From Marsupella aquatica (Eukaryota; Plantae; Marchantiophyta): a stretch of 64,000 bases of DNA. Numbering within the stretch: position 1 is the first letter of the stretch; the number at the start of each line of letters is the position of its first letter. A model generated the notes under the pieces. That model searched no databases and was not told the DNA's origin. It saw only the letters and a list, made by a program, of their open reading frames with translations. Below, in pieces: positions 3,001 to 33,499 of this stretch. The stretch is taken from positions 2,495,416 through 2,559,415 of the forward strand of contig OZ316897.1 in the NCBI GenBank assembly GCA_973895155.1. The letters run 5' to 3'. A program made the position numbers and the translations under genes.

Positions 3001-6000
3001 CTATAACATCCCGCCAGGTTTGTTGGCTTTCATACTGAGTGTACGCAATGCTACTTGAGGTATACCACAGGTATGATATAAACTTGGGGTCCTTTCGAGG
3101 GAAAAAATACAACTTGGGGTCTTAGGAACAGACTTCTCTCAGATACCCTCTTATAACGGACCACACTGAAATCAAGGACCTCAGATATGAGAACACAAAT
3201 TCAGAGTCGTGTCATATCATTTAGGCCGGCAAATTAAGATTTCGTTCACCAGGACTTACACGCCAGTGATTGAGATTAGGTAACCCATGTCATTCGCAAA
3301 ACGCGAGGTGTAGCAGTCTGTCTCACACAGCAGGATGTTTTCCCCTGAATGAAGCGGATCCAAAAATCGAGGGTAATCGCGCTCGGGATGGGGGACGTGG
3401 TGTCGTTCTAGCTGCACAACTTCCCAATTGCCAAAAGGTTCAAGAGCTGGATACCGTCACATCGCGCTACTGTATTTTAGCTTCACTGCAGTCAGATCGA
3501 TCACTACGATAACATCTGGAAATAAATTTTCGTGTCATGGATGTGGCGTGCTAATAATTGAAACCAATAGAAACCTAAAGACAACATTATCACTCGAACG
3601 CTGTTAATATAGTTCAGCAGAGATCTGGTTATTCGTTATACTGTTTCAACCCTGTCGAACCCAGTAATGCATGCGTACAATAACTACTGTATCATCCTCG
3701 GCTTCTGACAAGCTGTGGTCAAATATGGCAACAGAACGTGCTCAGCTCGCCAAACACGATCATTACGACTGTCTTTGCGTCGTTCCCGAGACAGACTAGA
3801 ACGGAAACAGTAATGTTTGCTCCACGTGAAACAAAGAGAGCACGCCGTTTTTCTAACACCTTTTAGCAAACTTCGGAGACGTACCTTTTTCACTCGTACG
3901 CATATTCTGTGACACTCGTACGCTCATTTGCTCTAACTATTGCAGCTGGCATATCATCATTCTACTGGATGTCGTCGATTCCACTGGCAATCTAGTGCTC
4001 GAGCCCTTGTACGCTCAATGGTACAATTCCCGCCCCATGAGGAAATGACTTAGCCAGCCCCCTCTGTGAAGACATTAAGACCCTCAGCTTTCCAATGCGT
4101 GGCCCCACAGCTCAGCTCTAAAAGGACTTAAACTGGCCTTACCAAGGTGCAGTCATAACTCCTCACATTCTTCTTACATGCATAATTACCACTATTAGAT
4201 AGGTTCATAATAGATACGGAGGCAGCCAGTTAACAGTCAGCCAGTATCGAGGAGGAGCCACCATAGCCCTGCACTGCCAGAATTCAGCCTATGATGACAA
4301 ATACAGCCAAGACATTTCCAGGGCACAACACCCGAGACACAACACCCGTTCCTTTCTGAAGATTGCATTGTCACATCCGGTTTCGTTAGTCCAGTGCCTG
4401 ATAGTGCGTCCCTTGTCACATACATATATCGTGAAGCATTGTTGTGGCTATCGCTCTTCTTGAAACACGTTAGATGAACACTTCTGGCATGGCAATAGTT
4501 GCGCATTTTCAAGTGACATGCCGAACTGCAGATTAACGATCCTACTGGCTTCTATGTGTCTCCAGATTTACCTTCTCAAACCTCAGCGTCCTGCTTTAAC
4601 GTCTGTGTTGCGGAACTCGCTTAAGGTAAATTGACAGCAGATAAAGGTATCTGACTCTGCTGATCGCCCATCGACCCCATCATCGACCATAGGTGGCGCT
4701 TAAGGTTTCTAATGTCCAGGTTGGCCACGCACTCGGCCACGCAGGGACTTGATGGTTTGAATTTTGGCTCTTTCTATGGACAATTGGCTTCCTTTATGGC
4801 CAAAAACGAGAAGATTGACAGACGGAGCTGATAGCCTTTCTAGACGCAACGATTTGGGAAGTCTTTCGGGTTGATCAGAATGGCCGAAAAGACTTTGCTA
4901 CGCTAAAGATTGCGGATCGACCTCATGACAACTGATGCGGAAGCTCTTCGAGTACGATGCAACCAGCTGTCCAGGTGTAATTTTCGTATGATCCTTGTCT
5001 TGCGTTCTGTTTTCTATGCTTGGTTATATATTTCTCTGGATCGAGAAAGCACAAACGATATCTCACTACATGTGCAAACATTGATAGCTTTCCGCACCTT
5101 TGTTTGTTTACGGCTTTCATCGACCTTCAATCGTCTTGTTCATGACTGCAGAATCAATGAAAGCAATGATTGCCGAGTAACCTCCGCAGTGCCTTTACAA
5201 TGTAATTGTTCAGAATTTTCAGCGAATGTGGAGATTAGTGACGTGACTCAGGGAGACTTCGTTCTCAACGATTCTCCTGTTTCCTTGCCATCACTTCTTT
5301 CAATGAAGACTGAGGTCCAATCGATCTTGTCTTGAGAGTGTATATCCCGCCCATCTCAGCTCACCTCACTCAAGACCTACTTGTGGTTCCTGGAACGACA
5401 GAACTTGCAGATCGAGAAGAGGAGAGTGTCTGATAGAGTTCATTTTAACTTGCTAATAATGTCAATGGCCAGGTTAAGTCATCTTCTTGGCCTTGTGAGT
5501 GTAGAAACCAGAAATGACTGTAGGATACGAGTTCTCGATTTACATCCGCAACCTGGCAGTCATGATTGACTAGACTACGTGGTGCCATTCATGCATAAAA
5601 TTTCATCTATGAGACACCAGTCTAACTGCTGTAGCAATCGAAACCAATCAGCAGATTTCCGCCACTCGCCGACTGGATGGAAACGTGGATAACTCAGAGA
5701 ACAACGGACCTGAGCTTCTGGTCTGCTGCAAAGGAAAGGTGTATACTTTATCAGGCCAGGGCGCATAAATCAACACGTCCCATATTGTCAATAATTTTAT
5801 TCTTATTCCGCCTCAACTTGCAACGAAAAGGTTCACCGAGAAATCTACTCAACGTGATGCTCCAGAAGTGAGACTGGAGTTTAGGCGTTGGCAGTGCAGA
5901 AATTGGGCAAAGTTTGCATCGACGCTTTTGAGGCAGACAGTGGCAACGTTTGGGAGACATCGTAGTTTGTAAAGGACAATTTTATATGACTCTCGTGTTG

Positions 6001-7864
6001 GAAACAGGAAAACAACGGATCAACATCACCGTGCACAAGTCCAATTTTTATTTTTCTATAAAAAAAGAAGGTTCAACTCTTCAAGATTCTTCCAAGTCGC
6101 CGAAAATTTGGGTTCCATTTCCAAACTTCATTCAATGGCCTACCACTAAAAGTTAAAAGGACATGTGAAGCTAATGGTAGAAGGAGGCCCATGAACTGAT
6201 GAACCTCCATAAAGTAGTTAAACTAGACAATATTAATGAAAGTGCGACAAAAGCTCCATAAAGTGCACAAGACAGAGGCTTGGAAGGTGTAAACTTCCAC
6301 TTTTGCACACGTTGACAGCTGAGATTTCAGCAGCTCGAAATTCTTGTCTAAAAGGTACAGTCTGGGTTGAGCCCGTGAGGTAATCTTTTGTTCACAGTTC
6401 ACACGCTGGATGCATGGAATCTCGAAGGGCTCTGTCATGAGCCACGTCCACTGGTTTCGCAACTTACTGTAGATCGGCACTTGAGAAGTCGGCTTCACAA
6501 TTTGCGGGATTGTCGGGAATTTTTTGGGATGGGAATTCATCAATGTCACGTCGCCATGCAACTATTGTATCGTCAGCGACGTTTTCGGGAGAGAGAACAC
6601 AATATCGCGAGAGAATGTTTGAAGAGGATTCGGACAGCAATGTCATATATGTAAGGCAGAACAAAGGCGAGAGGTGGAGCAGCCCTCTAGCTACAGTGCT
6701 TGACTGGAACAAAGCAGCTTGTTCAGGGACCTGATAGTATGTTTGCATTTGGATTCGGTGAGCATACACGGCGGATTATTGTCGCGAAAATTGCAAATAC
6801 TCAATCGAGAAGAGGGCAGGCGAAGCCCCCTAAATAGCAAGCGACAATCTGCTTAGATGATTTTAAAGGATTCTTCTCCCACAGAGAGTGGTTCATGAAC
6901 GTCCCGTCGATTCGTCACAAACCAACAAGATCCTCGGGTCCTGAGGACAACCTGTTGGATTAGGTACGGGTTGTGCAGAGGAGAGAGTGGTAAATTTTCA
7001 GGTGAGCATTCAGTGCCAGTCCTTAGAGCTCATTAGTACAGTGGTTTACAGCTGATTTTGGCAACCAAACAAGTCAGTAATCCCGGCGAAGTCGTTTGCA
7101 AGAAACCCATCTGCTGTTGAACACAATTAGCCTTGCTTGCTGAAAGAATACCCCTTCTATACGCACCTGTGGTGGCTTACTCAAGTGCACACCTTAACTT
7201 GCTTTGCTGAAACTAGCCAATTCATATATCTCGCTTGACTACTGTTGCCCTTCCATCCTGCCAGAGTCCTCTATTGGCTTCTTGCCATGAAAACCGACAA
7301 GATTTCCCCTCGTATTCTAAGCTTCCCTCCTCTTGCCCGGCTTGAGAGTCCGAATCTATGCTACGTAGATCGCTCCTCCCTGCAGCAACATCAATCTCAA
7401 AATCCAAAGACTCCGAGCCTCAGGATTAGCACTGTCGAATCACAGTGGAAGAAAGTCGGTCGGATGCATACTTGCTGTTTGAGAGTGTTCACAGGTGCAG
7501 TTTCAGTTGAACCCTGTGAAATCGATTTTCTCTCGACCCAAGCTGAAGAAAATCACAGCCTCTCGAAGAAAGGGCTGCCCTGCGCTCCTGCTCTCGCTTG
7601 AAATCGTCCACACCTGTTTTGGTCGCCCCAACAACTTGTCCAAAAGCAGCTGCAGTCAGTATGAACGCACACTATACTTGCCACGTTGTTCGGAACGGGA
7701 AACCATTTTAGCGCAGGTTCTGGTGTCTCAGGAAACGTGCGTTTATGGGAAAAGAAATCTGGGCGTGAACCCGGCCTTAGGAGCATTTGCCTCGGCCCAC
7801 AGACTTGCTACACTGGAAGAAGCAAGAGTTCCCCAAAGAAATTTTATTTCCACTGTGAACTCCG

Positions 7865-10358
7865 TCAAAAAAACGGCAGCTGTTTGGCAATTGTGGCGAC
7901 ATCTGAGCCAGATTCTGATGGCTTTCTTTCTTCATCTGGATCGTCTGATTCTTTGGCACTCTCCGATTCCACAAGCAAATTCCGATGGAGCTGCTGGTTC
8001 CCCCATGCGAGAAACTTCAAGCTGGACTCAACCTCGGTAACAGGCGGCGGCTTGTGAGATGGCCGAGGCAAGAAAAGGCTCGTAGTCCCTGTCGGCGGGT
8101 AGTTGTGGCCGAATATGGGTCTCAACTCCCTCAAGGTGTCGAGGACTTCTTTGATGGAGGGCCTTGCGTCAGGATCCATGCGCACGCACTGCAATGCTAA
8201 GAGGGCCACTTTCTTCCACTGCTTGAGGTCAAGTGGAGCCCCCGTCTGAATCAAATATGGCTCGAACAACTCGCTCAACCGATGGGTCTTCACTCTGGAG
8301 ATGGCGAGTGCAGCAAGCGTGAGCTTGTTTCTGGGCCGGCGGGGCTCCACCACCTGCATCCCGGATACGAGCTCGAGCAGGATCACCCCAAAACTGTACA
8401 CATCGCTCTTCATTGTGAGGTCGTAGTTCACAAGATAATAAGGATCCACATACCCTGGCGTGCCCACAGCGAGAGCGCTGAAGTTGCTAGAGTCGGTCGG
8501 TAAGCTCCTCGAGATGCCGAAACCAGCAAGTTTGGCAGAGAAGTACTCATCCAGGAGTACATGGGTTGATTTGACATCTCTATGAATGCTATGTAGAGTG
8601 CCATGAAGATGTGTGAGGGCCTGGGCTATTTCAATCGCTATTTTCATTCGAGTTCCCCAGTTGAGCTTCAATCCTCGTAACCCATCCAAGTGTTCCCTCA
8701 GGTTGCCGTTGGGGAGAAACTCATAAACTAGAACGGGGTCTTGAAAACCCAATGACCAGCCGATGAGCCTCAACACATGGGGGTGTCTGAATTGAGAGAT
8801 GATACCCACTTCCGCGTTGATAATGGAAAGCAACTCTCGGCTCACAAGCCTGAGTCTCTTGACGGCCACTGGACGGGAGAAATCTGGTAAATTGCCTCTG
8901 TATACGGTACCAAAGCCGCCTTCTCCAATCACGTTCGTGGCTGAGTAGAATCCGGTCGCTTTAGCCAGCTCCCGTTGAGAAAATCGAATTGCAGCCGTGG
9001 TTTGCCTCCAGTATCCTCTATACTCGTTTCGAAACCACGCCAAGTAGCATTCCACCTCTGCAACATTCCCCCCACCACACGGAGAGCACACCCCTCAAAT
9101 CTTACGAGAATGTAACTTTACTTTGGGGATCTTCAATTTGGAATCACTGTGTTTCTGTGCTTTAGTTTGGTATGGTGAGTAATGATCAATGTCGGAGATT
9201 CATTCCCTCAGTATCTTTTGGCAAACAAAATCAGGTGGACAAATCTTTAAACCAGTCTTGGTCACGATGTTTGAGCAGCTTTCTATGGGTCACTCCCCGT
9301 CTGAGCTAATCTCTTAGTCATGTGTCTTAGGAGGATCCCTATTGGACCTAAGGATGACCTTTCAACTTATTTTGTTATCTTGGCACCCTTTGTTGTCTAC
9401 GATATGTTCCTTCTCGGGCCAGTTGTGTCAAAGAACACCTCCCGGAGATTGAATTCCAGTCATTGGTCGACCACCTTCCATAGACCTACGGCACCTACTT
9501 CCAAACTAAGTATTCTGTAAAGGATTAGTTCTGCTGCTGGTGCTTCTAGTGGGATGATCACCTTCTGCTCAGGTATGTTGCAATTAAAGAAACGACAGAG
9601 GGCGGTTTTCAGTCTCCATTTAAAGTTTCACTTGCTCTCTGCAAAACTGCTAAAGCATGCAGATTGCAGGCCCAATTGGGTCAGATAGACTACAATTAGC
9701 TGCAGTAATGCAGCCGACCATGCAAGGTTCTTAGCAACTGAGGGATGCAGATTTGGTATCAGTACGGCCCCAGGAGCTCAGAAATAGTTCCTCAGAGAAT
9801 GACTCTCATTCTTTTGTGCAAGCTGCTGAGCCAGGGTATTAATGTTGAGATGACTGGCGATTTCTAGCAGTGCAATTCCAGCTTCAGGAACAAGAATACA
9901 AAGAGCCTGAGTAATAAGTTTAGGTTTATAGTTATGGCGAGTCGTGAACGAGAAGGCAGAATCAAGATACAGAAGGATATCAATGTGAAACAGTAGAGAT
10001 TACCTTGAGCGACCTGCAGATCGCTGGTGATGGTCCGTTGAAAGTATCTGCGAACGAAATCTTCCCAGGTGTGCCCCGCAGAGAATTGGCGTGCCCATGA
10101 GTAGTCGCAGTGTTGCATGTACTCCGAGGCAATCAACAAGGCGAGGTCGTCTGATAAGCCTTCCTGAGCGGCCCACCGACCAAAGCATTTAATCCAAGCA
10201 TCATTGACATCCTTAGATTCATTTCCCTGAGGTACGGGGACGAGAATCCTCGTCAGATGATCGGATTCCCTGGGACAATCGCTCAGCAGTATGTCAAGCC
10301 TCTCTCTCACGGTATCATCTATGTAGAACCGGGCTTGCTTGGGAGCGCTATGAGCCAT
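7865..10358 (-). CDS. Gag-capsid-like domain / RLK-Pelle pseudokinase fusion gene 1 (exons 10358-10004 and 9057-7865)
   Basis: Exon 1 encodes a Gag-like segment (VPVPQGNE..AW..F..WA..GLSDD..L..W....TWEDFVRRYFQR) and ends at the phase-1 donor CAAG|GTAATC. The phase-1 acceptor TTGCAG|AG at 9058/9057 joins it in frame to a WAK/LRK10L-like kinase (FSQREL, GEGGFG, VAVK, HRDVKSTH, KLAGFG, GTPGYVDP, KSDVYSFG). The DFG Asp is replaced by Gly. Confidence 0.8.
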
Positions 10359-11787
10359 GTTGCTGACCCAGGCTATCTGCTGACGTCAAGTACCATACAA
10401 CCTTGATGCATGACTGGTTGAAGTGGATTCCTCCACGCATGACAGTTCTCGATTGTCGACACTAGTCAATTGGGGAGAACCAACCATGGGAGGCAGTCTT
10501 AATTGTATAACACAAACGAGTCCCCGGGACTTGCAGCCTGTGCTGCCGAGTTGAATTGAACATCCAGAATGCTTATGCCGAACAACCATCATCACAAGAA
10601 GGGTGTCATCACTGTGATCGAAGTTGAGGCATTTAACAGCCTGACGTAAGAGGGTCCTTCTGTGCGAATCTCAGTCTCACGAAGTTCTCCTCCGATTAGC
10701 TGAAAATATATGTGAAGTCCGCATCCAATGTTTTGATCTGGTGATCATCATGATGGTGAGAGCGATCCCATGAATCGCTCTTATAGATGTACAGTAAGTC
10801 CCAACCTCCGGTGTAGGCGTTTCTATCTGTTGGATACGCTGAGTATAACTTAATGATCGAGTGGCTAGGTTTGTTATTCGGACGACGATCTATGAACAAG
10901 GATTTACGTCTGCATTCTGTTGGTGAAGTTCATAAAACCTTCCAGACAGGTTTGTACCTTAGCGGATGATCCTCACTAACTCAAACCTGTAGTTTTCCAA
11001 GCATCTGCTGAATTACAGGATTCGGCAGCAATCTCTGAAATCCATGGAAATAACTGGTGTTTCAATTATAATAACCAGCGAGAAGTCTAGCGGTGAGCTT
11101 GATGGGATTCCTGTGGACAACATCAACTCTTCATCTTCATAGAAGCAAGCTAGCTAGGTGAGCCCGCATCCAGTCGCCATGGCCACGCACCTTTAGCTCG
11201 GTTCAAGTACGATTTGAGAGTTCCTGGACAGCCTCCAAGAATTTAGTGAAGTCGACGACGGTTAAATTCACTTTCCATCATTGCCCAAAACTTCTGTATC
11301 CAAGAAATATTTCTCACAAACAACTTACTTCTATGATACGACGAAACGAGGCTCTTGCATTGCATGCATGCAAGAGACTGGTTTCCAAGGATGTTGAGCA
11401 TTTTGCTGCCAAAGTAGAAAGGGTTAGAGCAGGCATCTGGGCTCTCGAAAAGTGCATACTCAGAGCAATTGGGATCCTTCTGAAATATGGTTTTATTTGG
11501 CTGCTGGCCGTCCATATTGCAGACGAGCATGTCGATCCTTTGCCTGATCTTGTATCGATCAGCTTCGAGGGTATGTAATAAGTCGACGTCAATAATACAT
11601 GCAAGGGGATGGCCAGTGCATTATTTCACGAGTCTTGAATATATGAAGACGTGGTGCCTCTGAATTGCAAACGTGACGTCTTTCCACATTTACATTGCAA
11701 GATTGATTCAAGGACTCCTTCAGCTCCCGCAGAATTGGCACCGGCTGGCAGGTTGGCAACCACAGATGCATGGAAAGATCAGTTAAA

Positions 11788-14076
11788 TTAGTCTGGATCC
11801 CTTGGACTGATGATGGGACTCGGGTGCTCCCATTCCCAACCCAAGCGTCCTCTCTGATCTCCGACGAGATTCGTGTCTACCATCCACCTCCGGCGAGATC
11901 CAGATTCTCGGAAATTCTGCAGATAATCCGCCACTTCAGCAATGGAGGGTCTCCTTTCCAGATCGAAATCACAGCACCACACCGCCACATGCAGCATCCT
12001 TTCCAGAATCCCTGCACCGTAGATTTCTTCCGCTTTACCCGGAGGAATCGTATTGCCTGCACCGATGATCGAGTAAGGATGTGCTCCCCTCGTCCTGGAG
12101 ATGACCAGATCCACCAGGCACCTCTGCGATCTGGATGAATCCCACACCTTCATGAGCGTTACAAGCTCCATGAGCACCACGCCATAGCTGTACACATCCG
12201 TTTTATCATGGAGTATTCCAGTGTGCTTATAGACGGGGTCTACATACCCTTGACGATCGGCCAGAGGGCCGATCCTCTTGTCAGACTCGCTCTTGATCGC
12301 AACAGCCAAGCCCAAATCGTTGAGCTTAGCTCGCCAAGTCTCAGAGTAGACCAGAATGTTAGTAGATCTCACATCCCTGTGGAAGATTGGCCATCTCCCG
12401 TTGTAGTGGAGTTGAACCAGAGCGTTGGCCACATCAATGGCGACAGATAGACGAAATCTGGGATTGCTCTGGAGTTGATCGCCGTAGAGTCCCTCAATAT
12501 GGTGACGAAGATTGCCACCGATGAATTCCGAAACGAGGAGCGGGTTTCTCGCATTGCTGCAAAATCCTATCAAGCTGACGACGTCTGAATGGGTCGATTT
12601 CGTGATTTCTCGGCGGAGGCATACTTCGTCGAGGACCTTCTCCAGGTTCTCATTTTTCCTGACTCTGCGGGCCTTCACGGCGACTCTGTCGCTGCGACCT
12701 GAGAGTCGGGCCTCGTAGACGACACCCACAGAGCCTTCGCCCACCCGATTGCGGCCCGAGAACCCGTCTGTGGCTCGCTCCAACTCGCCGTATGAAAACC
12801 AAACCTTGGAAATATTCTTGGCGCAATCGTTATACCATTGCTCGAATTCTCCAGCTGCATTGCAACCGACATGGGTGGCACAATCTTCAGAACATGTCGG
12901 CAATCAGATATCTATTCACATGTACGATTCTTGATTTTAGTGAACAGGTCAATCATTCAGACTCTTGACCGATAAGAGTAATAATGTGTTTTCAACCCAT
13001 AACCAACTCATCCATCTCTAGCGGATGGAGACAAAGAGGAAGGTCAAACAACTCGTTGGAGAGGACAGACCCCGGCCGGCGATGGATTGGTGGATTGAAA
13101 TTTGATAATGAAGCTCTGGTCACACTTGTCCAGCGAAGAACGGCAGATCGCACCCTTGACCTTATGGACGGTTAATTCTGAGAAATTCTGGACATTCAGT
13201 TTTTCAAATCAATGCCTCTCCTGGCTGCTAATCCAATTATCCGAAATGAGAACCTGTTGCTGTGGAAGAAATTTGGACGAGCAATTGATGGTGGGAACCA
13301 AATGAAATTAATGGGAATCAGTGCAGGCATGCTCTGAATTCTGGAATGGATTCCGATTTTCATCATCCATGTCCAACTAAAGAAAACCTGGCTTGACCTC
13401 AAAATTCCTACACTGGTTTAATGTATCTTGTTGTAGAATTATGACTCGTGGTTCGGATGGTCCCAATGGCAATTCTCGTTACAAAGACAGACAAGGGTTT
13501 CATCAGATTGATTTGCCATTCCACCATCGGACTCACCAAAACTAAAGCAGATTGAAGGATAGGCTTGGGAAGCTTCAACTTCGAATTACTGAAGGGAAGG
13601 AGATCCATGCAAACGTTGGCGAGCTTCAGAAATTGGACCAACAACCGCACAATCGATGCATGTTCTGAATACTAAGGAACGGAAGGTCTGAAGAAAAGAA
13701 TTGTCATGCGCATAGCCTGATCAGAGCAGGGCAAAGAGCTACCGGATGGCAACCCGCCACATCCTGGAGGAATGTGGTGCCTCTGATAATAGTACTCGAC
13801 GTAGTCCTTCCACGTCTTGCAATCCATTTCAAGCGATGGCAAATTGAACGCCTTCTTGGTATACTCCTGGAGAAGTTGTTTCGTAAGATCATGGGAAAAG
13901 CCCATCTGTATCGCCCACAAACTCCAGAGTGTGAGGAATCTGACTGCAGCTTTCGGATCTTCGCATCCGGTATACTGAGGAATCACGATGTCACCCTTCT
14001 CCGCCCTCGGGATCAGAGGTAGCCCTGATATTGGCATGTCCCTCCGGACTGACTCGCTCAGCGCATAACGCGTCAT
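11788..14076 (-). CDS. Gag-capsid-like domain / RLK-Pelle kinase fusion gene 2 (exons ~14076-13743 and 12854-11788)
   Basis: Exon 1 (IVIPQYTGCED...W..WA..GFSHD...TWKDYVEYYYQR) ends at the weak phase-1 donor TCCG|GTAGCT. The phase-1 acceptor ATGCAG|CT is at 12855/12854. The kinase has GEGSVG, VAVK, HRDVRSTN, DLG, GYVDP and KTDVYSYG, so the catalytic Lys and both Asp residues are retained. Confidence 0.75.
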
Positions 14077-15736
14077 TGTTATCAACAGGCCTCGACGCAA
14101 GCTTTATACTGGATTCAATTTGCTTGCTCGTTAATGTCTCCCTCTTCTCCTGTAGATTTCCCGCTTTGCGAACTTTGGAGAATTGTACTCATAGGACGAG
14201 AATAGTGATGGTCTGGTCAAGCAACTTTTATGAATAAACAGACGAAAATCCCCCAGAATCGGCACAAGTGTTTTCTGTCGAGACCATTGTTGATTGGATG
14301 GACAGCCGAGCTCAATTCGGGGCTAATCCTTTCGGACAATCCTTAGCAGGATCCGTATTTTGAAAATTCAGGTTGCATTTGTAGGAATTTCAATCTACCA
14401 AAACTTGGAGGCAACGCGATCGATTCAAATCGTTTGCTCTTGTCGCGAGAACTGTGCAAGAGACTTCAATCCTCTGGTCGGGCGCTGCAGAATGACGACG
14501 GACCAGGGATGCGCTTAGCTGGGCAAGGTCGAAGGGGGCAGTGCAGGGCTCTGATCCTCGTGACCCTGCTTGCCCCCATCAGGTTAGGCGCCACCCTGAT
14601 TCAACGGTATGACCTAGATGGAAACAGCCAACGACCCGTGGAAAGCCGGTACGCAGTCTAATCAGGAGTGGAAACCGTGCAGGATGGAACCGAATTCGGA
14701 AGGCCAATTGCTCTCAAACAAGCTACAGGGACGGAATATTGCTAGTAGCCGAAGAGCGGATCTCATGGGAGATGAAATTATACGCACTAGACACCTTTTT
14801 GCCCTCAAGGGAACCTCAGAATAAAATGGCGAATGCGCGAGTGAGTCATGCATTCACACTCTTTACACAGAAGCTAAGGCACCAACGAGCTGTACAAGCG
14901 ACCCGTGAGAGATCTCACTGCTCTCACTAGTGTGTCCATCATAATTGTGCTAGGCGTCAATGTCCATCTTCGGCAACGGCTCGGTAACCTGATGTGGAGA
15001 ATGATGAAGCGAAGGCATAAACGGCGATTTTGCTGTGATCCCCTGAGATGATCACTCCATAGATACCGCTCTCAATATCACAACACGTTTTCTCCAATGA
15101 AACTATTTTACGGGGAACGACTTTGCTACAGGAGGTTGTACTGTAGTGAAGGTCGAGTAGAGACTAATACTAACATAACACAAGCTTTATCTCTAAATTT
15201 ATGAAATTGAATCTGGCTGGTTGACGAAATCGGGAGAGGTCACACTGCTGTCCCTGGGAGGGGTTTTACACATGGGGAGTTCAACCCATGGATAAAACTA
15301 ACTTGTGAAAGCTACGTGCTCATTCTGGGAATCGTGCCATGTTGGGAAAAAGTCTTCAGACTAGGAAACATTGCAGTGATCCATTGCAATGATACACAGC
15401 TGGATAATCTGCCTACTTAGGAATTGTCACAAGTCGGGACCGTCGACTTTATTTGACGTTCACACGAAACCAGTCAATGACGAAAATTTGACATCAATCA
15501 AGGACACAAACCAAGTTTATGCGGTCGGCAGCAAACCACTGCAGATTACTCATAAAGCACAGAGATGGAAACTTCTGAAATGCTTTGAAACCGAAATTTG
15601 ATTAATTGACTGGTTGCAGCGATGTTTGCTAACACCTCAACCTGCCAAAAATCTACACTAGCTTTACTTTGGTTGAGAGTGAAAATACTGAATACCTCCG
15701 CAACGTTCTGACCCTAGGCATTGACTAATAGCAGCA

Positions 15737-15960
15737 ATGGATCCCATCGGTCTGCCAAAATTTTATCCAGGGACCAATCACGACGGTGAAATATTCTTCC
15801 TATCGTTCCTAGGTGGTAGAAGAACTGACATCCATCCTCCTGGTGAATGGCGGATAACCTCTCTCGAGGCCCCTCCCCCGAGGCCTGGCATTGAGGGTGG
15901 CTGGCTAGCTGGCAGGCCCGAAGAGTTGGTACGCATTGAGATCTGACGCTTCAAGATTCA
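15737..15960 (+). pseudogene. possible degenerate retrotransposon Gag fragment
   Basis: MDPIGLPKFYPGTNHDGEIFFLSF resembles the Gag 'LPKF.G..D...FL..F' start. After a frameshift and a stop, LALRVAG*LAGPKSWY resembles 'L.G.A.SWY'. Confidence 0.3.
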
Positions 15961-17379
15961 AAAGCGTGCCGAAGCTCTTGGAGGTTGGAAAGGATGGGGC
16001 CCAGAAAGTCACTCTAAAGCAATGGTAGGAGGAGAAATCTGTCAAGTAGACAGGCGGTAGTGCCTATTTCTGCGCTAATTTCCTCGTGAGCTACATTGAC
16101 AGTCGCCTACTAGATGGACTGATTATTGTACATAGCCTTGCGGTTGATTACTGAACCATTTAGCAACTAGAATCACGGCGAGCCAGTTGGGGATATGTCT
16201 TATGCTTGATGGATACATCGATTGGGAGAAAGCACTAAGAGCCTCCAGCATCATGGAGGCAAGTGATCCCTTGTTCCTCCTGAGCGACTTCCTTTGGGTC
16301 TGAATCCAGTTGGCTTGCCTGCCTTTATGGGGAAGAGGGTGTTGAGGTGGAAGAAGAATGGCCTTCCTCTGTTTCCCGTCAGGATTCCAGTGGTTTTGGA
16401 TCCAACTCGAATGGCATCTCAAAGTCTTGATTCGCCTCTGCCCTCTTCAGCGTGCTCTTCCACTCGCCCTGGTACCGCTGGCAGAGTACTAGACTGTGCA
16501 AAGAAAGGCTCATCTACCGGGAAATCATCTCGAGTGAAATTCGACTGGCTCAATTTGTCGACCGTCATTCAGTTTACATCCCCTCGGTCCGAGTCTTCCC
16601 AGGAGCAGCAACTCTATCCGTCGGCCAACTCACTCGATTCCCACTCCCCTCCTGAAGTCTGTCAATGATCATCACCCGGAGCGGTCGGACGTTTCTCACA
16701 ATATCTTTCAATTACAGAGCAGAAGGGAAAGAAAGTATCAGTCCGACAGATAAATCATGAAAGCAATTCGTAGTGACTAACGCGGTGGCTTCGTAGATGC
16801 ACTGGCGCTAAGAATCGCGCTTCTGGCAGATCACACACCGCCTGCAAATTACAACTGCATGATTGTGGAGCATCGAGAGACATTGTTAGTTTCCCTAGAG
16901 GTAGTGTCCGGCCAATCGCTGTTGGATTAGGGACAATCAACCTACCCCCTCCTGAAATAATGTTTCAACCACAAGAATTGACGTGCATCTACTGAAGCAA
17001 GTAATAAGAGGAGTTGTAAAGATGATCTCCTACCCACAAAATTCTAGGACTCAAGTTGAGTAAGGGACTAGAAGCTCCATACCCCAAGCGTGCTGCCTCC
17101 AGAGACTTCACCTCAAGAAGCATTCATTCATTCATTTGTCAAGACCAAGCAATATATTGTTGTCTACTGGCTACAGAGATGATAACACGTCGTTGAGCAT
17201 TGTACCCACAGAAAAAGAAGGGTAGCTCCAAACCTCCAATACTTAGAGGAGAATCTGAGGAGTCAAGATTGACTGATCCCTTAGACAGCACGAGGACTGC
17301 GAACCAGAAAGAGACACAGGACACATTCATTCAACCATCCATTCACTGATCCGACCAGTCATTCATTCAGACATTGGTC

Positions 17380-20154
17380 ATGACGCGCGAACATTCTGTG
17401 TTTTACAACATCTTTGAGATCTTCTGCATGGGAGAGCACTTCGCTCTCTGCGATGCGGTCCGGGCGAGGCTTCGCAAGAGCCAGAACCGCTGCCTCTACC
17501 CCAGCCCTGCCAAGGACGACCTTGTGGTCCCCGTGCTCACAGGCGAGGAGCACAAGTCCAAGGTCGAAGCGTGGACGCGGAGCTACTTCTCGTGGGCAAT
17601 GCAGGAGCGTCTGTCGGATGACCAAGCTCTGCTGGTCGCTCTGGAGCATCTCGAAGGCAAGGCTCATGCGTGGGGGCGCTTGTTCAGCACCGGAGCATCG
17701 CTGGAGGACTTCATGTACGCTTTGTGCGAGGAATTCAAGGCTTTCTCCGGTGAAATCGACAGAGGAGAGGCTCACTCCCCGCGCGCCGAGAAAGTAATCC
17801 CGCAGATCAAACACGCGTTCGCTCAAGTAAGAGATCCCTCCATTCCTCGACTCTCCCTCGATCAATTGTTCTCACCATGTCCCGCTCAACTATGGTGAGC
17901 ATTGCCGCAACTCTTTGTACTTAAATTGGAAGACCTCTATTATGAGAAACGCTGCAGAGGGAGGATTCAATGAGAAATCTGTCATAGCTGAATGCTCTCC
18001 ACAGCCTAGGTGGGCAATTGCCAATCGGTCAGTACATTCTTGTCGTTAGAAAATATCAAGCCAATGCTCAATTAACTCAACACAAGAGGGTGACAATGCT
18101 CCCTCTGATGGGAACTCTCCTGGATGAAATAATCCTGCACATGAAACACGCCTTCGCTCATGTAGGAGATCCCTCCATTAATCCAGTCTCCCTCTCTATT
18201 GTACTCATCTATCTATCTATCTAAAATCCCGCCCAAGTATGCTGACGATACGACCACCACTTACGACGCACTTCTATCAAGGTGCTCAAAGCTCGAAGGA
18301 TCCATCGTAGATCTCTCTCTGATCAACAGCAGTAGATACTTGTGGGCTTAACAGAGGCTTGCCCCCTTAGAGTACATCCATGAATTTAGGTGTCATTATA
18401 ACATGCTCAATCCATCATCATAGATCTCTAATAGTGGGTACTAGTTCACTTCAACAAAAGGCTTGCCCCCTTGCCCCCTTCAATTAAAGGCCATCCTTGT
18501 TCCATTTGCAGACTTGGTTATTGCACTAGATGTAAATCATTAGCTTATCACACTATTGCCCTGATAGATTTTTGTCTACTTTTGACTTAGCCTGTTGGGA
18601 GAGGTTTGCATCCCACATGATTACTGGTGCTCACTCATGTCAATATGGCAAAGATTTCATCCTCGTAGGCTATTTTCTACTGCTCCTCCAGAGAGCTTCC
18701 CATGGCTGCTTGATAATTAAGCCTGTGTGGCAAGTTAGTTCGAACCATCACTGACTAGAGAAAGGGGGAAAGTTCAATTAGTAGTGCAGGGTTTTTTATC
18801 TGAAGTGGGAAACATGGTCCAATCTAAATACTAAGCCGGTAGTTGGGATAAATCCATCTGGGTGGTATAGAAAACGTGACTGAGCAGTAGAGAAGAGTGG
18901 ATCTCCGGATTCTGAGCGTCGTTCACAAAGTCTGGAGGACAGCATTAAGGATGTGTTTCTGATTTCTCCCTTGGAAACTAAGAGGAACCCTGCGACGTCA
19001 CTAGTGTTCCCAGCGTCTGGGGTGGTAAACTTGAATGATAAGGGAACCAAGGGCCAACCAGACTAAGAGAAATATAAATGAGAAGGTGCTTCATCTCTGC
19101 GAGAAAAAACCAAGTGACCAATCTAGTAGACGCTAGAAATGGATATCTGCACATGACGTGGGATTCTGACATCATCACTGATTGAATTGATTGAACTTTC
19201 AAACAGATGCAAGAGATCACGTGTGTGCGATTCTCCTACAGAGAATTGGCTTATGCTACGAACATTTTCTCAAGCAACAATCTGATCAAGGAGAATGAGA
19301 TTGGATGGTTATATCAAGGACGGCTGCCAGACAAGCGGCTGGTAGCCGTGAGAAGATTAAAAAAACCAGTCTGTTGCAGTGAAACGACAATTGAGCAGCT
19401 ACAAAGGGAAGTAAAGACCCTCTCTCTGATTAATCATCACAATCTAATCAGACTCCTGGGATGCTGTCTTGAGCCTGATGAGCCACTCCTTGTCTTTGAG
19501 TTTGAGCCAAGAGGTAACCTAGCACAGCATTTGCAAAGAGAGAAAGGTCGTGGATTAGACTGGGAAACAAGGTTTACTATAGCCCTCGAAGCAGCTGATG
19601 GGTTGTCTCACCTGCACCACGCCTGCACCCCTCCTTTGTTTCACAGAAATCTGAAATCTTCTAATATTCTTCTGGACGAGGACCTGAGACCGAAAATCAC
19701 AGGTTTTGGCATCTCCAAGTCCATGTTCGCTAAGGATTTTACACCATTGCCAGAATCAAAAATTGGTTACATTGATCCCAGCTATGCCCAGACTTACAGA
19801 TTCACAGAGAAAAGTGATGTCTATAGCTTCGGTGTGATTCTAATGGAGCTGGTGTCTAGCAAGAAAGTAGTGGACTTCAGCAGACCTGCCGGAGAGATCA
19901 CTCTTGCGGCTTTAGCTTTCACCAAGAAAAAACTTGGTTATACAGAATTCAAGGACCTGTTTGACCCACAGCTCAAAAATTTGGGAAAGACGTGCCTCTC
20001 TACAATACATGAAGTAGCACTACTGGCTCTCAAGTGCATGGCTCTGGATGGAGATGCCCGACCATCCATGAAAGAGGTTTCAGATCAGTTGCGCATGATT
20101 CAAGATAGGGAGGTCATCAGAACAAAGAGAGGTGACAGCGAATTCATGCAATAG
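17380..20154 (+). CDS. Gag-capsid-like domain / RLK-Pelle pseudokinase fusion gene 3 (exons 17380-17826 and 19207-20154)
   Basis: Exon 1 is the clearest Gag-like match (VPVLTGEE..VEAW...WA...LSDDQALLVALEHLEGKAHAW...SLEDFMYALCEEF). The strong phase-0 donor CAA|GTAAGA at 17826/17827 matches the phase-0 acceptor AAACAG|ATG at 19206/19207. The kinase lacks the Gly loop (IKENEIG), the VAIK Lys (VAVRR), the HRD Asp (HRN) and the DFG Asp (GFG). Confidence 0.82.
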
Positions 20155-20957
20155 CAAGTCAACAAATCAAAACTATCCATTCACAACATCAAAAGTCCGT
20201 CATGTAGTCCAGAATCGAAATGTAGATGTACAGTACATGATTGAGAATTATTTTTTATCCAAGGACAAGAATAGATAGAGAGTTTTGCAACAAGACTATT
20301 TTTTATAGCTCAAGATGCTATACCATTGTCAACAACAATTAACCAGATTGAGGCCTCATGATGCTCTCATGCAAAGCATGGAAACAAGCAAAATGACCGG
20401 CATACTGTAAAGTGTTAACTTGCGAACTTTAGAATGAGAATGACTCGTCTGATGTAAAAATATGCAGCAAACAAACTCAAAAACGCAACCTATGCTGATC
20501 ATCTGCCCTCTAAGCAGTAGAACCAACGCAGTAGGTATTATGCCTTTGCCTCTGTCGTGACAGGATCTGTCATTAACTCGTAAACATGCATTCGCTAATT
20601 GTTTGAGTGAAATCCTCTGGACATAAAGATGGACCAAAAATTCCATATCACACTTCAAAAGATTTGCACAAGTTCGTTATTATTACAATTATCAACAACA
20701 TGAGTCAGTCGACCAATAGAAGATTCTATGGACTAGCTATACGATGGAAATGCCATCGAAACAGGCTGCATAATATGGACTTCTAATGTAAGTAGCTGGC
20801 CAATCTACACCGCAGTGCTGAGCTCGGAATATCTTACAGGTAGCTGCTAGCAAGGAGCAGAAAATTGTATATCAGCCAATTACCAATGTGGGTGAGATTG
20901 AATAACAGCATCGTAAGACTTATACGATGGAATTGGCGTACTTAAATGAACGCAGAG

Positions 20958-23676
20958 TTATTCATCTCGCCGCACTGCATCAGTCATCCAGCAATGTTCA
21001 TATGGCCCTTCCTCCTAAAAAATTAAGTTCCCACATCAGAATGAAGCATTGTAAAATTGTACTTGCCAGTCAACAGCCGCAGTAAATGCCACCTGTCTGA
21101 AACTCAGCAATCATAACCATCCTTCGACAGAGAGTCCTCTGAAGTGAGTAAACTGACAGACGCGTTCAGTGAAGCACTCTGCCGACCTAAGGAAGTAATT
21201 TTGAGAAAACTCCAAGGAGAAGGCACTTCATCCACAACCGACCCATCTCTGTCCATTCATGACTGATGTATCCTTGATCCTATTAGCAGGAACTATACTT
21301 TTGGGGGGCTGATAAAGCAGACTGACCTGACGAGTTAAAGACCATTGGAAGGTCGCTTGTTTACCGTTGTGCCCTTTTATTACTACACGCTGCACAAACA
21401 TCCATTAAAGGTGATATTGTTGCAGTCCAGCCCAATCAGTGAGGCACGACAAGTACGGTTTTCTCGGAAACCAAAGCATGCGTGGACCAAACAAACTTGA
21501 AACTCTTAGACAGAAACAAGAAATCACGAGTGGAACGGTCGTCTTTGCAGAGGGCAGATTGTACTAAGCTTAGATTTCTGTATGAAAGTAATGACGTAGT
21601 GTGCACTGTAAAGTAACCACCTGCTGAAAGCGGTTACTGCTGATTGTGATTGTGCTCAGAATCTCTGCACTCGTATGCCCAATCATGACCTGGAAGATTT
21701 ACATCAGTAGATTAATGAGCACAATAACATCAAAATGGGAAGTAAGTACTCATGTTCAGGCCCCAATAGCAACTAAAGCTTTGGACACATGAGCAAATTT
21801 CTTTCGCAACGCAGTGATCCTGGTTGACTCATACTACTCACATTGTATGCCCTGCCTTCTAGCATTTCCGAGAATCGTAGAAGAGGACCTGTGCGTGCTT
21901 TGTTGGTTGGTGAAGCGAATTCAAATCTGTTAAAATAATCAATGACTGACCTTCAGATATTCAACTAGAAAACAGAGGGAAGAATTCATTACAAGGCAGA
22001 AAACGAGAACTCTGTTTCGAACATGACAAAGGATATCTGCGTAAAATTCATCTCATTCTTTCGATACATACACAGTGGCAAGATCATTTTCTCGCAAAGC
22101 CTTCAGTTGTGCCTTAACAACGTCAGCAGGATGCACCTGAGGATTACAAGCAGTATCAGATTCAGATGGTTCTCAGATTAGTTTTATGATGTTTGACGAG
22201 TCATTTAAAGTTTCGGAAATCTCTTCGAAGATTGGCAGAAACATTGACCAACAACAGAGATAAACGGCATGCTCGTCCTCATTGACTTTGAAAGGTCTCC
22301 AAGAGCATGTTGGCCAATTTGCCCAAAATTAATGAATCACTAGTGAGATGGAGAACGACCGCAATTCAGGATCCTACATCCCACCTTTTCGACCTAGTCA
22401 AGGTAAGAGGACAAGGAGGAGCTACATGAAAAGCAAAATGAAAAGAGTACTTCAGAATAAATGACATTAGAGATATCTTAGAATGCCTAAACCAGAAATA
22501 CATGGTTTAGGGTCACAAACCTCTGGATGTGGCTTTGTTGGTGGGGCCTGCTCACCACCCCTGTATAAAAAGTTCCACGTTATCTCAGCTTATTATGGTT
22601 GATCCACAAACACAGTACCACATGTCATTTCATTTCCTTTCGTTTCATTCCCTTATCTCACAGAAGAGAATGTGTCTCTTCACACTTAATCTTATCTGAC
22701 TACCTACTCGAAAGACTGTCTTATAACATTGACTGGGTGACAGATTTGTAAAGTTAATTGGACCAGGAGACAGAAAGTGTGAAATGCAAGTTCTAAAGAA
22801 GATAAGAGCTAAATCTGAGCATCTTCAAGTGCTTGGCTTTCTGCAGCATTACTTATTTGTGTTCAACATCCACCGCTTTCTTTCACATAGATGCTCATTG
22901 TTCTCAATCTCTGTACTCACTCCGAATTGATCCGCTGACCACATTACGATAAACCCGATCCCGTGTGATATACATTAGACTTTAAAGTTTAGTCACGGAG
23001 GTCTACTGGACCCAACTACGATCGCATCAGTCCAAAAATAGCTTCGGCTCCAGTTGTTAAGAAGTCATCTCCAATATCCAGTGAAGAACTCACTAAGTCG
23101 AAGCATGCCGTCTAAAACATAAATTTGCCCAGTATCTTACCCATTCTGACTTGGTAAAGTCTGATCTGAATCCGCTGTAGCTGCAGCAATGACAGCAATT
23201 TCTCGCCTTCCAAATGGACTGATCCTTCTTGCGCACCTGTCGCTGCAAGTGCCATACTCTGAAGGTGGCAACTGTCCAGGATGCTTCCTAGTTGCATCCA
23301 GGCCAATGCTTGAGCAAAGTGCCGAAATCCAATCGTCTCTAACAACAGAAACAGTTGACCTGCCTGCCCCCCTCCTCTTCGATCCCTCAGCACTGGCAAC
23401 AAGGAATTGCGTGGAAAACTTTAAAGTCAATCTCTGTCCGGTTTTCAATGGCAAAGACCTACGCCGTGGTGGAGTTACGGGAGTAAATAGGGTAGCCCTG
23501 TGATACTCTTCTCCACTAGGATCCTGAAACTTGACGGGGCTTCGCCATCCACTGGAAGAAGGTAAGGGACCTGCATACTTCGCTGGACAAGACCATTCCG
23601 AACCACGGCATTGATCAATTCTACCCAGAGGTGTACTTCCCAGTGCAAGTAGGGCAACTGGACCATCCGATCCCAT
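20958..23676 (-). CDS. DUF4864-domain protein with long N-terminal, probably plastid-targeting extension (7 exons)
   Basis: Spliced exons with GT-AG borders give PHPE/VHPADVVKAQLKALRENDLATV/FEFASPTNKARTGPLLRFSEMLEGRAYN/VMIGHTSAEILS.../RVVIKG...FQWSLTRQ/EEGPYEHCWMTDAVRRDE*, the typical DUF4864 pattern. Confidence 0.85.
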
Positions 23677-26600
23677 AATTTATCTTTCCAGGCCTCAGAG
23701 GGAAGAAGTTCCCTTAAATTCCAGAAAAAGAAACGACCCCTTTCAGGTCTCACTTTCTGACTATCAAGCAGTAGGCGTGCAATGCGGTCTATGGAAGAAG
23801 AAAGTATATGGATGACAAACTGCTCAACCGACGTTACGCCACGATCTCTTCGCCTCAAGTGCTTGATCATTAATCATAAAATCTTAGCCGGAATTCCAGA
23901 ATGTAGACATATGTAATCGATAGAATCTGCAGACAAACGAAACACACGAGCAGTTGAGAAACTCAAATTCATGAATGCACGCAGATGTTTCTATAGTACA
24001 GACGGACGTTACAACTTAGATTTTTGAAGCGTGGGTGCATCCAATACTGATCGCGACAAAAGCCTAGAGAAACCTGGTTTGAAGCAACTACGACTCGCAC
24101 AATAATTGCTGTGACTATTCCATCAATTCCATTTAATCGATGTTAATGGATGGCAAACTTATTAGCTGCCGTTGGCCAACTACTGGAGTGGACTCGCTGG
24201 CCCATATTGTATCAAGCCTCCTAACGAGGATGTGACCCATGCATTGCATTTGATTTCGGGCTTTCTGTGACGAGGCTCAATCATTCATTCTCACCCAGTT
24301 GCAGTGTTATACAGTTAATACAAATTTGCCTCAACTACTACGCAACACAGGGAGGGTGCAGGAAGAAAAAGAGCACAATACCGCACGGATATCATAATAA
24401 TATTTCTAATTCTTCCTCAGCTTACGCACTTTCGAAACGATTTCCAGGATGAAATCGTAGCCTACCATTCTTTCATTCATATTCATTCTCTGGATAAAAT
24501 GGGCCGGATTGCTAGGGCAGAAGCTATCTCTATATGCATAATGTCACGGAAATGAAAAGGACAGAGAAGACGGAAATGATATATGACACAGACTTCGTCC
24601 CCCTATCATGTCGAGTTACTCTCCATAGAACACACATCTATGGTGTGCAGCCAAATTGGGGACCAAAAGCTTCCTACTTCAATTAAACGAAGCAATGACT
24701 GCTCGAAGAGATCACCTATAAGGTTTGATTTAATCCTCGTTAATAATATTGATAGAACGCCGGCAAAGTACGGTTTGATGCGGTCAGGTAGGTGGGTAAT
24801 TCGTTCGTAGCAATTTGCCAGCGACTTTATGCAAGCGGGTGGCAGGAAATTCTCTTCTCTCCTCCGGGTTTCAAGTACAAAACGAGGCCGATCGCAGCCT
24901 ACCTGGATAGACTTTGCTTCTTCAACTCAAGAGTCTCACTAAATCCGCCTCCCTTTTAAAGCCCTTTTTCCCCGAAACAAACTAAGAAATTGGTTTGTTT
25001 CAACTGAATATTCACTACAATTCATACTCTTCAGCCCCGGCCCTCCTCTCGAAGTCCTTTCTGCCCCAACTAAACTAAGCAATAACTTTACGTCTACTCA
25101 AGATTCTCGATAATTCTACCTCCTCCTCCCGAGTCGAAGTGCTTTCCTGCCCGACAACAAACTACAGAATCACTTTGCTTCGGCTCAAGATTCTGAAAAT
25201 GATTCCTCCTCCTCGTCAACTTCGCTTCTCGAACTAAGTCTCTACTGTCCCGGAATGGCTTTGTTTCTGTCAAGAATGTCAATAATTCCTCGTGCTGACC
25301 CACACTCTTGGAGTCCTTTCTATCATAAACAAGTAAAGGTGGCACGGTGGAAGCAGGGCGAGGATGAGCGACCGAAAGTAAAGCTGGCGCTGACTTTGAC
25401 AAAAGGTGGTGCAAATTCGAACTACGGCCAAATTCGAACTCGTCCCTGTAGCGCAGAGTTGGAATCGTTGCAGTACACGAGTTTTAAGATGAAAAGATCA
25501 GCGCTGTTCTAATGTCCTGCCTTCGTTGAATCCCTTCCGGTAGCACGATCCTCCACGTTCTCGCTCCGGGGCTTGCGGGCCTATCTACCTCTCCTCTTCT
25601 ATCCTGTGCCCGTCGTTAATTCATCAACTAGCGATACGTCCTGTTTTACTCTTTGCCTCCCTGCTTTCCCTTACCTTGAAGCACCAGGCTCCGTAGGAAT
25701 GAAACCACCGCACTTCTGCTTCAGACTACAAATAAAATAATGCGTTCATCTGCTCCTAATTGCCACGCAGTACACCAGTAGTCTCGCAGGTGCATTCAGG
25801 GACGGTACTGTTCAGTGTACCACAGAAGTAGAGTGGAACGAGCTTCCCTTCAACAGTCGGTCAAGCCGGAATCCCGGACGCCAGGAAGCCAAACGTCAAT
25901 CCGCACCGTCCACATGCAGCCAAAAAGCATGAGACCTCCGGTAAACACGGATCTGGCTGAGGAATACCGTATCTTTTTCTCCGACAGACATTGCGTGTGT
26001 GCTATGCCCTCTCTCTCACCGATTAAGGACTCACACACGACAAGATTGTGGAGAACTCATCCGAAACAGTAGTACAAGAAAGAAAGGAAATTGAAGAAAG
26101 AAAGGCTCCAGAATGAGGAGCACCTGTTAGCTTCGATCAATTGGTGACCCGATTCCTCCGAGGTGTAGGCCCTGCACCGCAACCGCGCCACTCCCAGCCG
26201 TTCCTTGCCTTTCAATCCCTTACTTCACAACACACAATTGGCACCCGAAAGCGAGGGCCACACGCGGCGTCCTCGGTTCGTCAAAAGAAGCACACAGACT
26301 TCCATCAGTCTTTTCCTTCTCGTCTTGATCGATGAACACACTCCATCTGCCACAATCTTAGTACCAATCGGCAGCTACGAGTACGCAAAGTGTATGAAGA
26401 AAACAATTCCGAAGATGAGGAGACTGAACTTCAAACTTGAAGTGCAATAGTTTCGTCCCTCACCCGTTCATTGCTGGTGATGAACAGCAATTAATGAACA
26501 GCAATTAAGTATCTTGCTCTGCGTTTCGACTTGCTGCCATGGATGGATGGATGGATCGATCGATCCACCGATTCAATGCATGAGAGCTGCTCAGTGAGCT

Positions 26601-30150: not shown

Positions 30151-33499
<3,349 letters not shown>

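Follow-up and report, generated by a model that had tools for sequence, protein, structure and literature searches.

Here we describe a cluster of three neighbouring genes, g1, g2 and g3, in a stretch of 64,000 nucleotides of the liverwort Marsupella aquatica (contig OZ316897.1, positions 2,495,416 to 2,559,415; this whole stretch is called the window in what follows). In each of them the first exon encodes a domain of ~100 residues that very probably derives from the N-terminal lobe of a long terminal repeat (LTR) retroelement capsid, and the second exon encodes a receptor-type kinase. The fusion is shared with other liverworts, and the duplicated copies have diverged into one kinase predicted to be active and two that look like pseudokinases. 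The hypothesis that the capsid-lobe domain is a docking module assembling the kinase trio stands, in our judgement, at about an even chance.

The three two-exon predicted gene models are confirmed in the form in which a sequence-only reading of this DNA had described them, with the exons, the junctions and the intron phases (1, 1 and 0) as claimed, GT..AG borders throughout and no internal stop in the predicted proteins of 515, 466 and 464 amino acids for g1, g2 and g3, respectively (Table 1). The first exons, claimed to be paralogous, encode peptides that are mutually homologous (local scores 164, 81 and 61; z 29.6, 12.8 and 7.6, scores reached by 0 of 2000 shuffles), and a family profile compared with the six frames of the window gave exactly three strong matches. 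Three of the four motifs proposed to be common to these exons match in all three genes, while the leading W of the remaining one, 'W..WA.Q', is present only in g2. The splice junctions find their counterparts in other species: the g3 junction, AFAQ followed by MQ, is identical in annotated proteins of Calypogeia fissa and Riccia, and the Marchantia-type read-through open reading frame (ORF) P0009 departs from the annotated protein after the same VAQ as in g1. Unspliced read-through ORFs diverged from their annotated partners at the matching place in six of six pairs, each with a Gly at or beside the break, as a phase-1 donor would give. Four contig runs, whose kind is unrecorded, held no spliced joint in g1-g3, a result that carries no weight on expression.

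The intron of g3 lies ~20 codons closer to the kinase than that of g1 and g2 and is therefore not the same intron. Translation of g3 may alternatively start at the second ATG (17431), which is the start of the Riccia orthologue, and the orientation of the genes makes the 3.3-kb spacer between g2 and g3 a possible shared promoter. Two further observations concern these gene models. The intron of g3 holds, 335 nt downstream, a degenerate copy of the end of exon 1 together with its donor. In most members the exon-2 linker following the phase-1 intron (for example, 9057-9000 on the minus strand) has a conserved aromatic W-Y/F and then basic residues, possibly a remnant of a transmembrane-juxtamembrane border.

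Table 1. Positions of the gene models and other features, numbered along the window unless another locus is named.
Feature	Position	Strand	Description
g1 exon 1	10004..10358	-	capsid N-lobe-derived domain (very probable); phase-1 donor at 10003
g1 intron	9058..10003	-	946 nt, GT..AG, phase 1
g1 exon 2	7865..9057	-	linker, WAK/LRK10L-like kinase (predicted pseudokinase), acidic tail
g2 exon 1	13743..14076	-	capsid N-lobe-derived domain (very probable), most divergent copy of the trio
g2 intron	12855..13742	-	888 nt, GT..AG, phase 1
g2 exon 2	11788..12854	-	kinase, catalytic residues kept, predicted active
Spacer g2-g3	14077..17379	.	3.3 kb, g2 and g3 head-to-head
g3 exon 1	17380..17826	+	capsid N-lobe-derived domain (very probable; folded core 17431-17745) and linker
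g3 intron	17827..19206	+	1380 nt, GT..AG, phase 0
Repeat in g3 intron	18127..18207	+	3'-terminal part of g3 exon 1 with its donor, repeated in degenerate form (82-84%)
g3 exon 2	19207..20154	+	predicted pseudokinase
Copia-type retrotransposon	43612-47913	+	long gag and pol ORFs; Retrotran_gag_2, zf-CCHC, rve, RVT_2
RNase H-type multi-intron gene	L004 5998-7769		Cys-rich tail
RNase H-type multi-intron gene	L009 5989-9432		Cys-rich tail

Identity of the exon-1 domain and of its kinase partners

The sequence-only reading had assigned the first exons to the Gag capsid region of Ty3/gypsy elements. An AlphaFold2 (AF2) model of the domain, built from an alignment of 18 rows, has a predicted local distance difference test score (pLDDT) of 94 and presents a strand at residues 4-6, a helix at 8-18, a second strand at 31-33 and four helices within 42-101, so that the capsid-like core is predicted to be preceded by a strand-helix extension specific to this family. 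Comparison of this model with 48,161 chains in VIA-align placed retroelement capsid or Arc-type chains throughout ranks 1-17, the best being dArc1 residues 41-121 (Z 9.4, root-mean-square deviation (rmsd) 2.9 over 76, 20% identity); the Ty3 N-terminal domain (NTD; residues 37-106) superposed at rmsd 1.9 over 64, and the first non-capsid fold appeared down at Z 5.1. The best Foldseek match was also dArc1 (E 7.6e-3, rmsd 1.7 over 70). Profile A5 compared with 177,635 PDB sequences gave five matches, the top four being the N-lobes of dArc1 and dArc2 (E 0.006-0.13), aligned with one gap, and profile A4, made from a divergent subgroup, recovered dArc1 at E 1.2e-4. Pfam rows for Ty3_capsid or Retrotrans_gag appeared in six of the 19 family matches scanned, all below the cut-off, with the best relatives reaching 19.8 of the 29.1 bits and 19.5 of the 24.1 bits needed. 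With the raw g3 exon as query, the two nearest clusters of the Atlas were PF03732 (0.92), a family carried by 49% and 95% of their members. No single one of these results is strong, yet the four methods converge, and we consider the capsid identity very probable; homology at the level of sequence to Ty3/gypsy-type capsids is weak and partly transitive.

There are a number of results that pull in the opposite direction. No Foldseek match reached E 1e-3, a VIA-align Z of 8 or more was obtained in one row only, and helical bundles may reach such Z values by chance. The Pfam scan matched PF03732 Retrotrans_gag or PF19259 Ty3_capsid in none of the three window exons, and profile A2, made from six kinase-fused sequences, matched no capsid among the PDB sequences and no gag family in Pfam; profile A1 likewise matched no capsid among the PDB sequences. 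The model built from A2 is weaker (pLDDT 73), its best structural match being an acyl carrier protein at Z 4.7, with capsids in 14 of its 50 structure-match rows and no clear match in Foldseek. Part of the capsid signal therefore comes through the divergent members. In the Atlas, the shared features numbered 122 and 110 of 256, against the 170 that are typical of a single family.

What stands of the earlier assignment is a predicted capsid fold, probably that of the N-lobe only. The best structural matches are N-lobes, though capsid lobes share a fold and the C-lobe of Drt2 (PDB 9rxy) also matches at Z 7.1. A stretch of only ~30-50 residues separates the domain from the kinase, which in all 20 proteins begins 142-223 residues after the N terminus; judged by these lengths, the C-terminal capsid lobe is missing, there being no room for it, and the domain should therefore not build capsids. 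Position 36 is Phe in 13 of the 18 rows and is aligned to F52 of dArc1, a residue that holds the N-terminal strand in the cleft (PMC6938703). The model, with bridges at positions 36 and 74, predicts that the strand sits in the cleft as in dARC1, and because of this residue and these bridges the peptide cleft used by mammalian Arc is probably closed in the present family.

The second exon of each gene holds one Pfam Pkinase/PK_Tyr_Ser-Thr domain, of the WAK/LRK10L type according to Pfam, to the name of the paralogue MpRLK-Pelle_WAK_LRK10L-9 and to the Marchantia annotations WAKL9/14/21. Examination of the residues preceding the kinase found no transmembrane (TM)-like stretch of 19 residues in any of the 20 proteins (highest Kyte-Doolittle (KD) mean 0.33-1.13), which supports the proposal that the capsid domain occupies the position of the ectodomain and TM segment of a receptor kinase. 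The g1 kinase has His for the catalytic-loop Asn and GFG for DFG, and its orthologues are without the HRD Arg. In g3 the VAVK Lys is replaced by Arg, HRD by HRN and DFG by GFG, the Gly loop is degenerate, and the losses of the VAVK Lys and the HRD Asp are shared with the Riccia orthologue. Both therefore look like pseudokinases. Conversely, g2 and its orthologues retain the VAVK Lys, the helix-C Glu, HRD, Asn and DLG, motifs by which we predict an active kinase, and the kinase of LRK10L-9 is intact. The kinase partner claimed by the sequence-only reading is thus real, though two of the three kinases look dead and the domain also occurs on a partner that is not a kinase (see below).

History of the family and a second partner

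The same fusion had been suggested as worth seeking in other bryophytes, and fused domain-kinase proteins are annotated in C. fissa, two Riccia species and two Marchantia species. The first exon of g3 as query retrieved full-length proteins of C. fissa and Riccia sorocarpa, a profile of the three exons also retrieved Marchantia Mp3g07350 among others, and a wider profile, with which the best 7,996 sharing candidates were scored, retrieved R1sor_006852. Phylogenetic analysis identified R1sor_006851, R1sor_006852 and R1sor_006853 as the orthologues of g1, g2 and g3, in the same order as far as their consecutive locus tags tell. In C. fissa the orthologues of g2 and g3 have consecutive accessions on two contigs, and a g1 orthologue was absent from the sequences retrieved. 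Calypogeia belongs to the Jungermanniopsida and Riccia to the Marchantiopsida, classes that 'likely diverged in the Devonian' (PMC9516144).

The domain of g1 is 53-55% identical to those of Mp3g07350, Mapa_001180 and R1sor_006851; exon 1 of g2 is 90% identical to C. fissa CAM6097348/CAM6128238 and 49-51% to R1sor_006852 and R1flu_005892; and that of g3 is 91-93% identical to C. fissa and 64% to R1sor_006853. Identities of domain and kinase across the classes run in parallel (55/53, 51/53 and 64/70% in g1, g2 and g3, respectively), so by this measure the domain is conserved to the same degree as the kinase, at 49-64%, while paralogous domains are mutually only 22-38% identical. We compared a profile with 1.84 billion representatives; the output, which names a single protein for each 50% cluster and does not include the g3 orthologues P0001 and P0002, consisted of 22 matches, comprising 19 family members, a single Gag-like fragment, P0029 (E 8e-4), and two repeat-driven artefacts, P0025 and P0028, which we rejected. 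Among the members that bear names are MpRLK-Pelle_WAK_LRK10L-9, Mp3g06070, Mp3g00080 and C. fissa CAM6097336.

Trees of the domain and of the kinase, made with 11 non-redundant rows of 20, share seven of eight splits, and the pairwise identities of both parts are correlated (Mantel r 0.81, 0 of 10,000 permutations). Within these trees, which consist of fused proteins only, the congruence fits one ancient fusion, and thus the single capture that had been proposed, followed by whole-gene duplications. The simple triplication proposed together with it did not hold. The trees place at least six lineages before the split of the liverwort classes, with g1 and g3 grouping with LRK10L-9, and g2, which is not their sister, with Mp3g00080. 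The trio is therefore an old cluster of distant paralogues, and the tree rules out a recent local triplication. Likewise, fused orthologues in three genera, conserved across classes, rule out a transposable element (TE) remnant beside unrelated kinases and mark the trio as host genes, in agreement with the domestication proposed.

Several observations on particular members accompany this history. In a further organism, organism B, exon 1 of g1 shows five differences (two silent and three replacing), too few for estimating dN/dS. Its contigs (runs X3/X4) include a version of g1 in which 9871-10227 is missing, so that the donor is lost, as well as one whose exon 1 is intact; in X4 the g2 kinase contains an additional base at 12074; these variants, known from contigs of one study, are possibly broken extra copies or alleles. 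C. fissa CAM6097336/CAM6128242 and M. paleacea Mapa_007767/Mapa_007781 bear accession or locus numbers near those of the trio or of each other, which suggests a larger, loose cluster. P0020 (cluster n=13), P0023, P0026 and P0027 are further divergent exon-1 ORFs of the family.

The domain also heads genes of a second architecture. In P0056 it is joined to an RNase H-like RVT_3 domain, and the ten metagenome loci retrieved with the divergent profile (L001-L010, in three sequence groups) have RNase H-like exons downstream in every case and no kinase match in any. In all seven RNase H-type loci checked, the domain runs up to a phase-1 GT, L004 and L009 have further GT-AG introns at matching places, and the tail of these multi-intron genes is Cys-rich. 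In the RNase H-like domain the first catalytic position is Ser and the last is Ala or Gln, where Asp is canonical. No DNA match was found between the ten loci and the window, and the Atlas gave no usable match for P0056. Because it heads RNase H-like genes as well, the domain is, by these comparisons, a mobile module bounded by its exon and not an accessory of kinases only.

The surroundings of the trio agree with the statement that no retroelement lies beside it: motif search of the window found no reverse transcriptase (RT), protease, zinc-knuckle or integrase motif near g1-g3, its only TE motif matches (44527 and 46945) lying within a copia element, and no LTR-like repeats were found in 5000-24000. 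This element was considered as donor of the domain and rejected, its Gag being unmatched (hhalign probability 0.1; no match to the family profile). Elsewhere in the window, an ORF at 52169-52852 (plus strand) has a weak match to Replitron_C (E 2.7e-5, below the cut-off), and the exon at 32041-32481 (minus strand) belongs to a 26S proteasome AAA-ATPase subunit (OB domain).

Expression in Marchantia and the function of the fusion

Three adjacent kinases of Marchantia annotated as WAKL, Mp3g07330, Mp3g07340 and Mp3g07350, appear in a stress atlas (PMC9946954), of whose 25 conditions 10 are covered here; the last is assigned to the trio by sequence and the other two by position. Within these conditions all their rows are UP (8/8, 5/5 and 7/7, respectively), the three being UP together in five of the ten (cold, cold+light, cold+low nitrogen, heat+dark and heat+mannitol) and none of them in cold+mannitol or dark. 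Mp3g00080 is UP in four of four rows.

In a model of docking, part of a Ty3/gypsy-like gag would have been captured in the form of an exon bordered downstream by a phase-1 intron and would have replaced the ectodomain and TM segment. Contacts between the domains would then link the probably active g2 to g1 and g3, the predicted pseudokinases, in a cytoplasmic signalling complex induced by stress, on the model of the pairing of zinc-finger proteins by the gag-derived SCAN domain. The trio is adjacent, g2 and g3 stand head-to-head, and one intact kinase accompanies two degenerate ones. Docking explains why the trio has been kept and is co-induced, why the constraint is strong, why a C-lobe is missing and why the domain was reused on a dead enzyme. 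Weighing against it, the stable dimer of dARC1 is mediated by the C-lobe (PMC6938703), the very lobe that is missing here; co-induction of neighbouring genes can arise without binding; Mapoly0095s0007, Mp3g06070 and Mp3g00080 are located outside the trio; and Mp3g06070 is DOWN in three of three rows.

Alternatively, the domain might serve each kinase privately, autoinhibiting its own kinase or binding outside peptides in the manner of the mammalian Arc N-lobe, and the paralogues would then work independently of one another. The domain tracks its own kinase in every lineage, complexes of the Arc N-lobe with peptides were matched at Z 7.1, and the low identity among paralogous domains would fit separate specificities. 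However, the strand residue of dARC1 type and the bridges described above fit a cleft that is filled by the protein itself (PMC6938703), and dead kinases beside a live one, as well as the same domain on an RNase H fold, would be left unexplained, so that we consider this reading improbable, if the least so of the alternatives. Slightly less probable is a decoy of plant immunity, in which effectors of cellular pathogens would be recognised by the pseudokinases or by the capsid lobe and the signal passed on through g2 or through a nucleotide-binding leucine-rich repeat (NLR) protein, in the manner of the kinase fusion proteins of Triticeae. The combination of a kinase with a non-kinase domain and with a pseudokinase corresponds to the definition of kinase fusion proteins (KFPs) and tandem kinase proteins (TKPs; 10.1101/2024.04.30.591956), the kinases are of WAK/LRK10L type, and the variants of g1 and g2 in organism B, from one study, hint at copy turnover; the deep conservation and the kept gene order speak against it, as do expression evidence that is abiotic only and the absence of an NLR among the long ORFs of the window, with nine ORFs/proteins scanned.

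A sensor of retroelements, in which the capsid lobe as a decoy would co-assemble with, or be clustered by, the lattices of Gag or caulimovirid coats and so switch on the kinases, we regard as unlikely too, by a hair more so than the immune decoy. In favour are the capsid fold itself, the four top rows of the viral library, all of them caulimovirid coat proteins (E 0.1-0.5), and the yeast protein Drt2, a single domesticated capsid lobe that restricts Ty1' (PMC10951436); the second partner, an altered RNase H-like RVT_3 domain, is likewise of retroelement type, and Tat elements carry an additional RNase H (PMC6317226). But Drt2 works through a C-lobe, the domain is remote from present-day Gag, as the one Gag-like fragment among 22 profile matches indicates, and one-to-one orthology with kinase-level conservation across classes is unlike an arms race between host and element. 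In its widest form this proposal, of the same low probability, would make the domain a pre-Devonian capsid lobe acting inside the cells of early land plants as a lattice-reading decoy, on the kinase trio in liverworts and on a dead RNase H in other plants. If true, assembly of retrotransposon or pararetrovirus particles would trigger kinase signalling, and the family would rank with the oldest known domestications of gag and be the first plant receptor linking capsid to kinase. Those coat-protein rows also touch the origin of the domain: their lead in the viral library, though weak, leaves a Ty3/gypsy donor likely but short of proof. The capsid of copia (Z 7.2) and the C-terminal domain (CTD) of Ty1 (Z 7.1) stand near the second-best VIA-align rows and the E-values are modest, yet sequence searches favour dArc1/dArc2, Ty3_capsid and Retrotrans_gag, and the copia Gag of the window is unmatched, as said above. 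Hence we hold a copia or caulimovirid source, or an unrelated small helical bundle, for the least probable of the readings considered. Docking of the kinase trio remains our preferred reading, and the family has members in the model Marchantia polymorpha (Mp3g07350, Mp3g06070, Mp3g00080 and Mapoly0095s0007), a species in which the mechanism can be tested directly.

Relation to known systems

Domestication of gag and its fusion to host genes are known; what is unusual is the age of the present family, and the joining of a capsid lobe to a kinase is undescribed in the literature searched. The sequence-only reading had not recognised this architecture, and we found no description of either fusion or of the gene identifiers in a search outside of which most subscription journals lie, nor any match in the supplements of PMC6174852 and PMC11906373. 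A retroelement part would here have taken the place of a receptor ectodomain, and a second partner carries it as well, as a mobile exon.

The WAK/WAKL/LRK10L receptor kinases share the kinase type, whereas the present proteins have no signal peptide-like or TM stretch and carry the capsid lobe in the place of the ectodomain. Retroviral Gag-kinase oncoproteins are viral and not host genes. The kinase fusion and tandem kinase proteins of Triticeae (RWT4, WTK1, Sr43 and WTK6-vWA) also consist of a cytoplasmic RLK/Pelle kinase with an added domain and also set kinase and pseudokinase side by side (10.1101/2024.04.30.591956), but the liverworts have them in separate genes, each with a one-to-one orthologue across the classes; we found no gag domain in the literature searched on KFPs.

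Among capsid-derived proteins, dArc1, dArc2 and tetrapod Arc (PDB 6s7x, 6tap and 4x3h) have the N-terminal strand and the four-helix core in common with the present domain (PMC6938703). Arc retains both lobes and assembles particles (PMC6938703), whereas here there is the N-lobe only, with an extra strand-helix in front and a kinase behind. Drt2 and Ty1 p22 are also single domesticated lobes, but they are C-lobes, recent, close to their target element and without a kinase (PMC10951436).

SCAN, a dimerisation module of zinc-finger proteins, is a C-lobe found in tetrapods on transcription factors; the present domain is an N-lobe that is joined to kinases and also to an RNase H fold. Like the present domain, SCAN (Crtg7 in PMC8321522) is a single capsid lobe reused at the N terminus of a host family that has expanded. 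It belongs to the co-opted gag genes Crtg1-14, which are gag-derived, syntenic above the family level and constrained, as the present family appears to be, and of which Crtg10-KELP and Crtg14-PEX14 are fusions to host genes (PMC8321522). That survey, of 2,011 eukaryote genomes, counted 14 gag co-options, four of them in plants, and concluded that co-opted gag genes are rare and short-lived; its main text mentions neither kinase, Marchantia nor moss, although the screen had included the genome of M. polymorpha (PMC8321522). Known domestications of gag come from animals, from fungi and, in four cases, from angiosperms, the latter ~175 Ma or younger, and Arc and SCAN date to ~352 Ma (PMC8321522). 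The present family, at least Devonian in age since it predates the split of the liverwort classes, would therefore equal or exceed Arc and SCAN in age.

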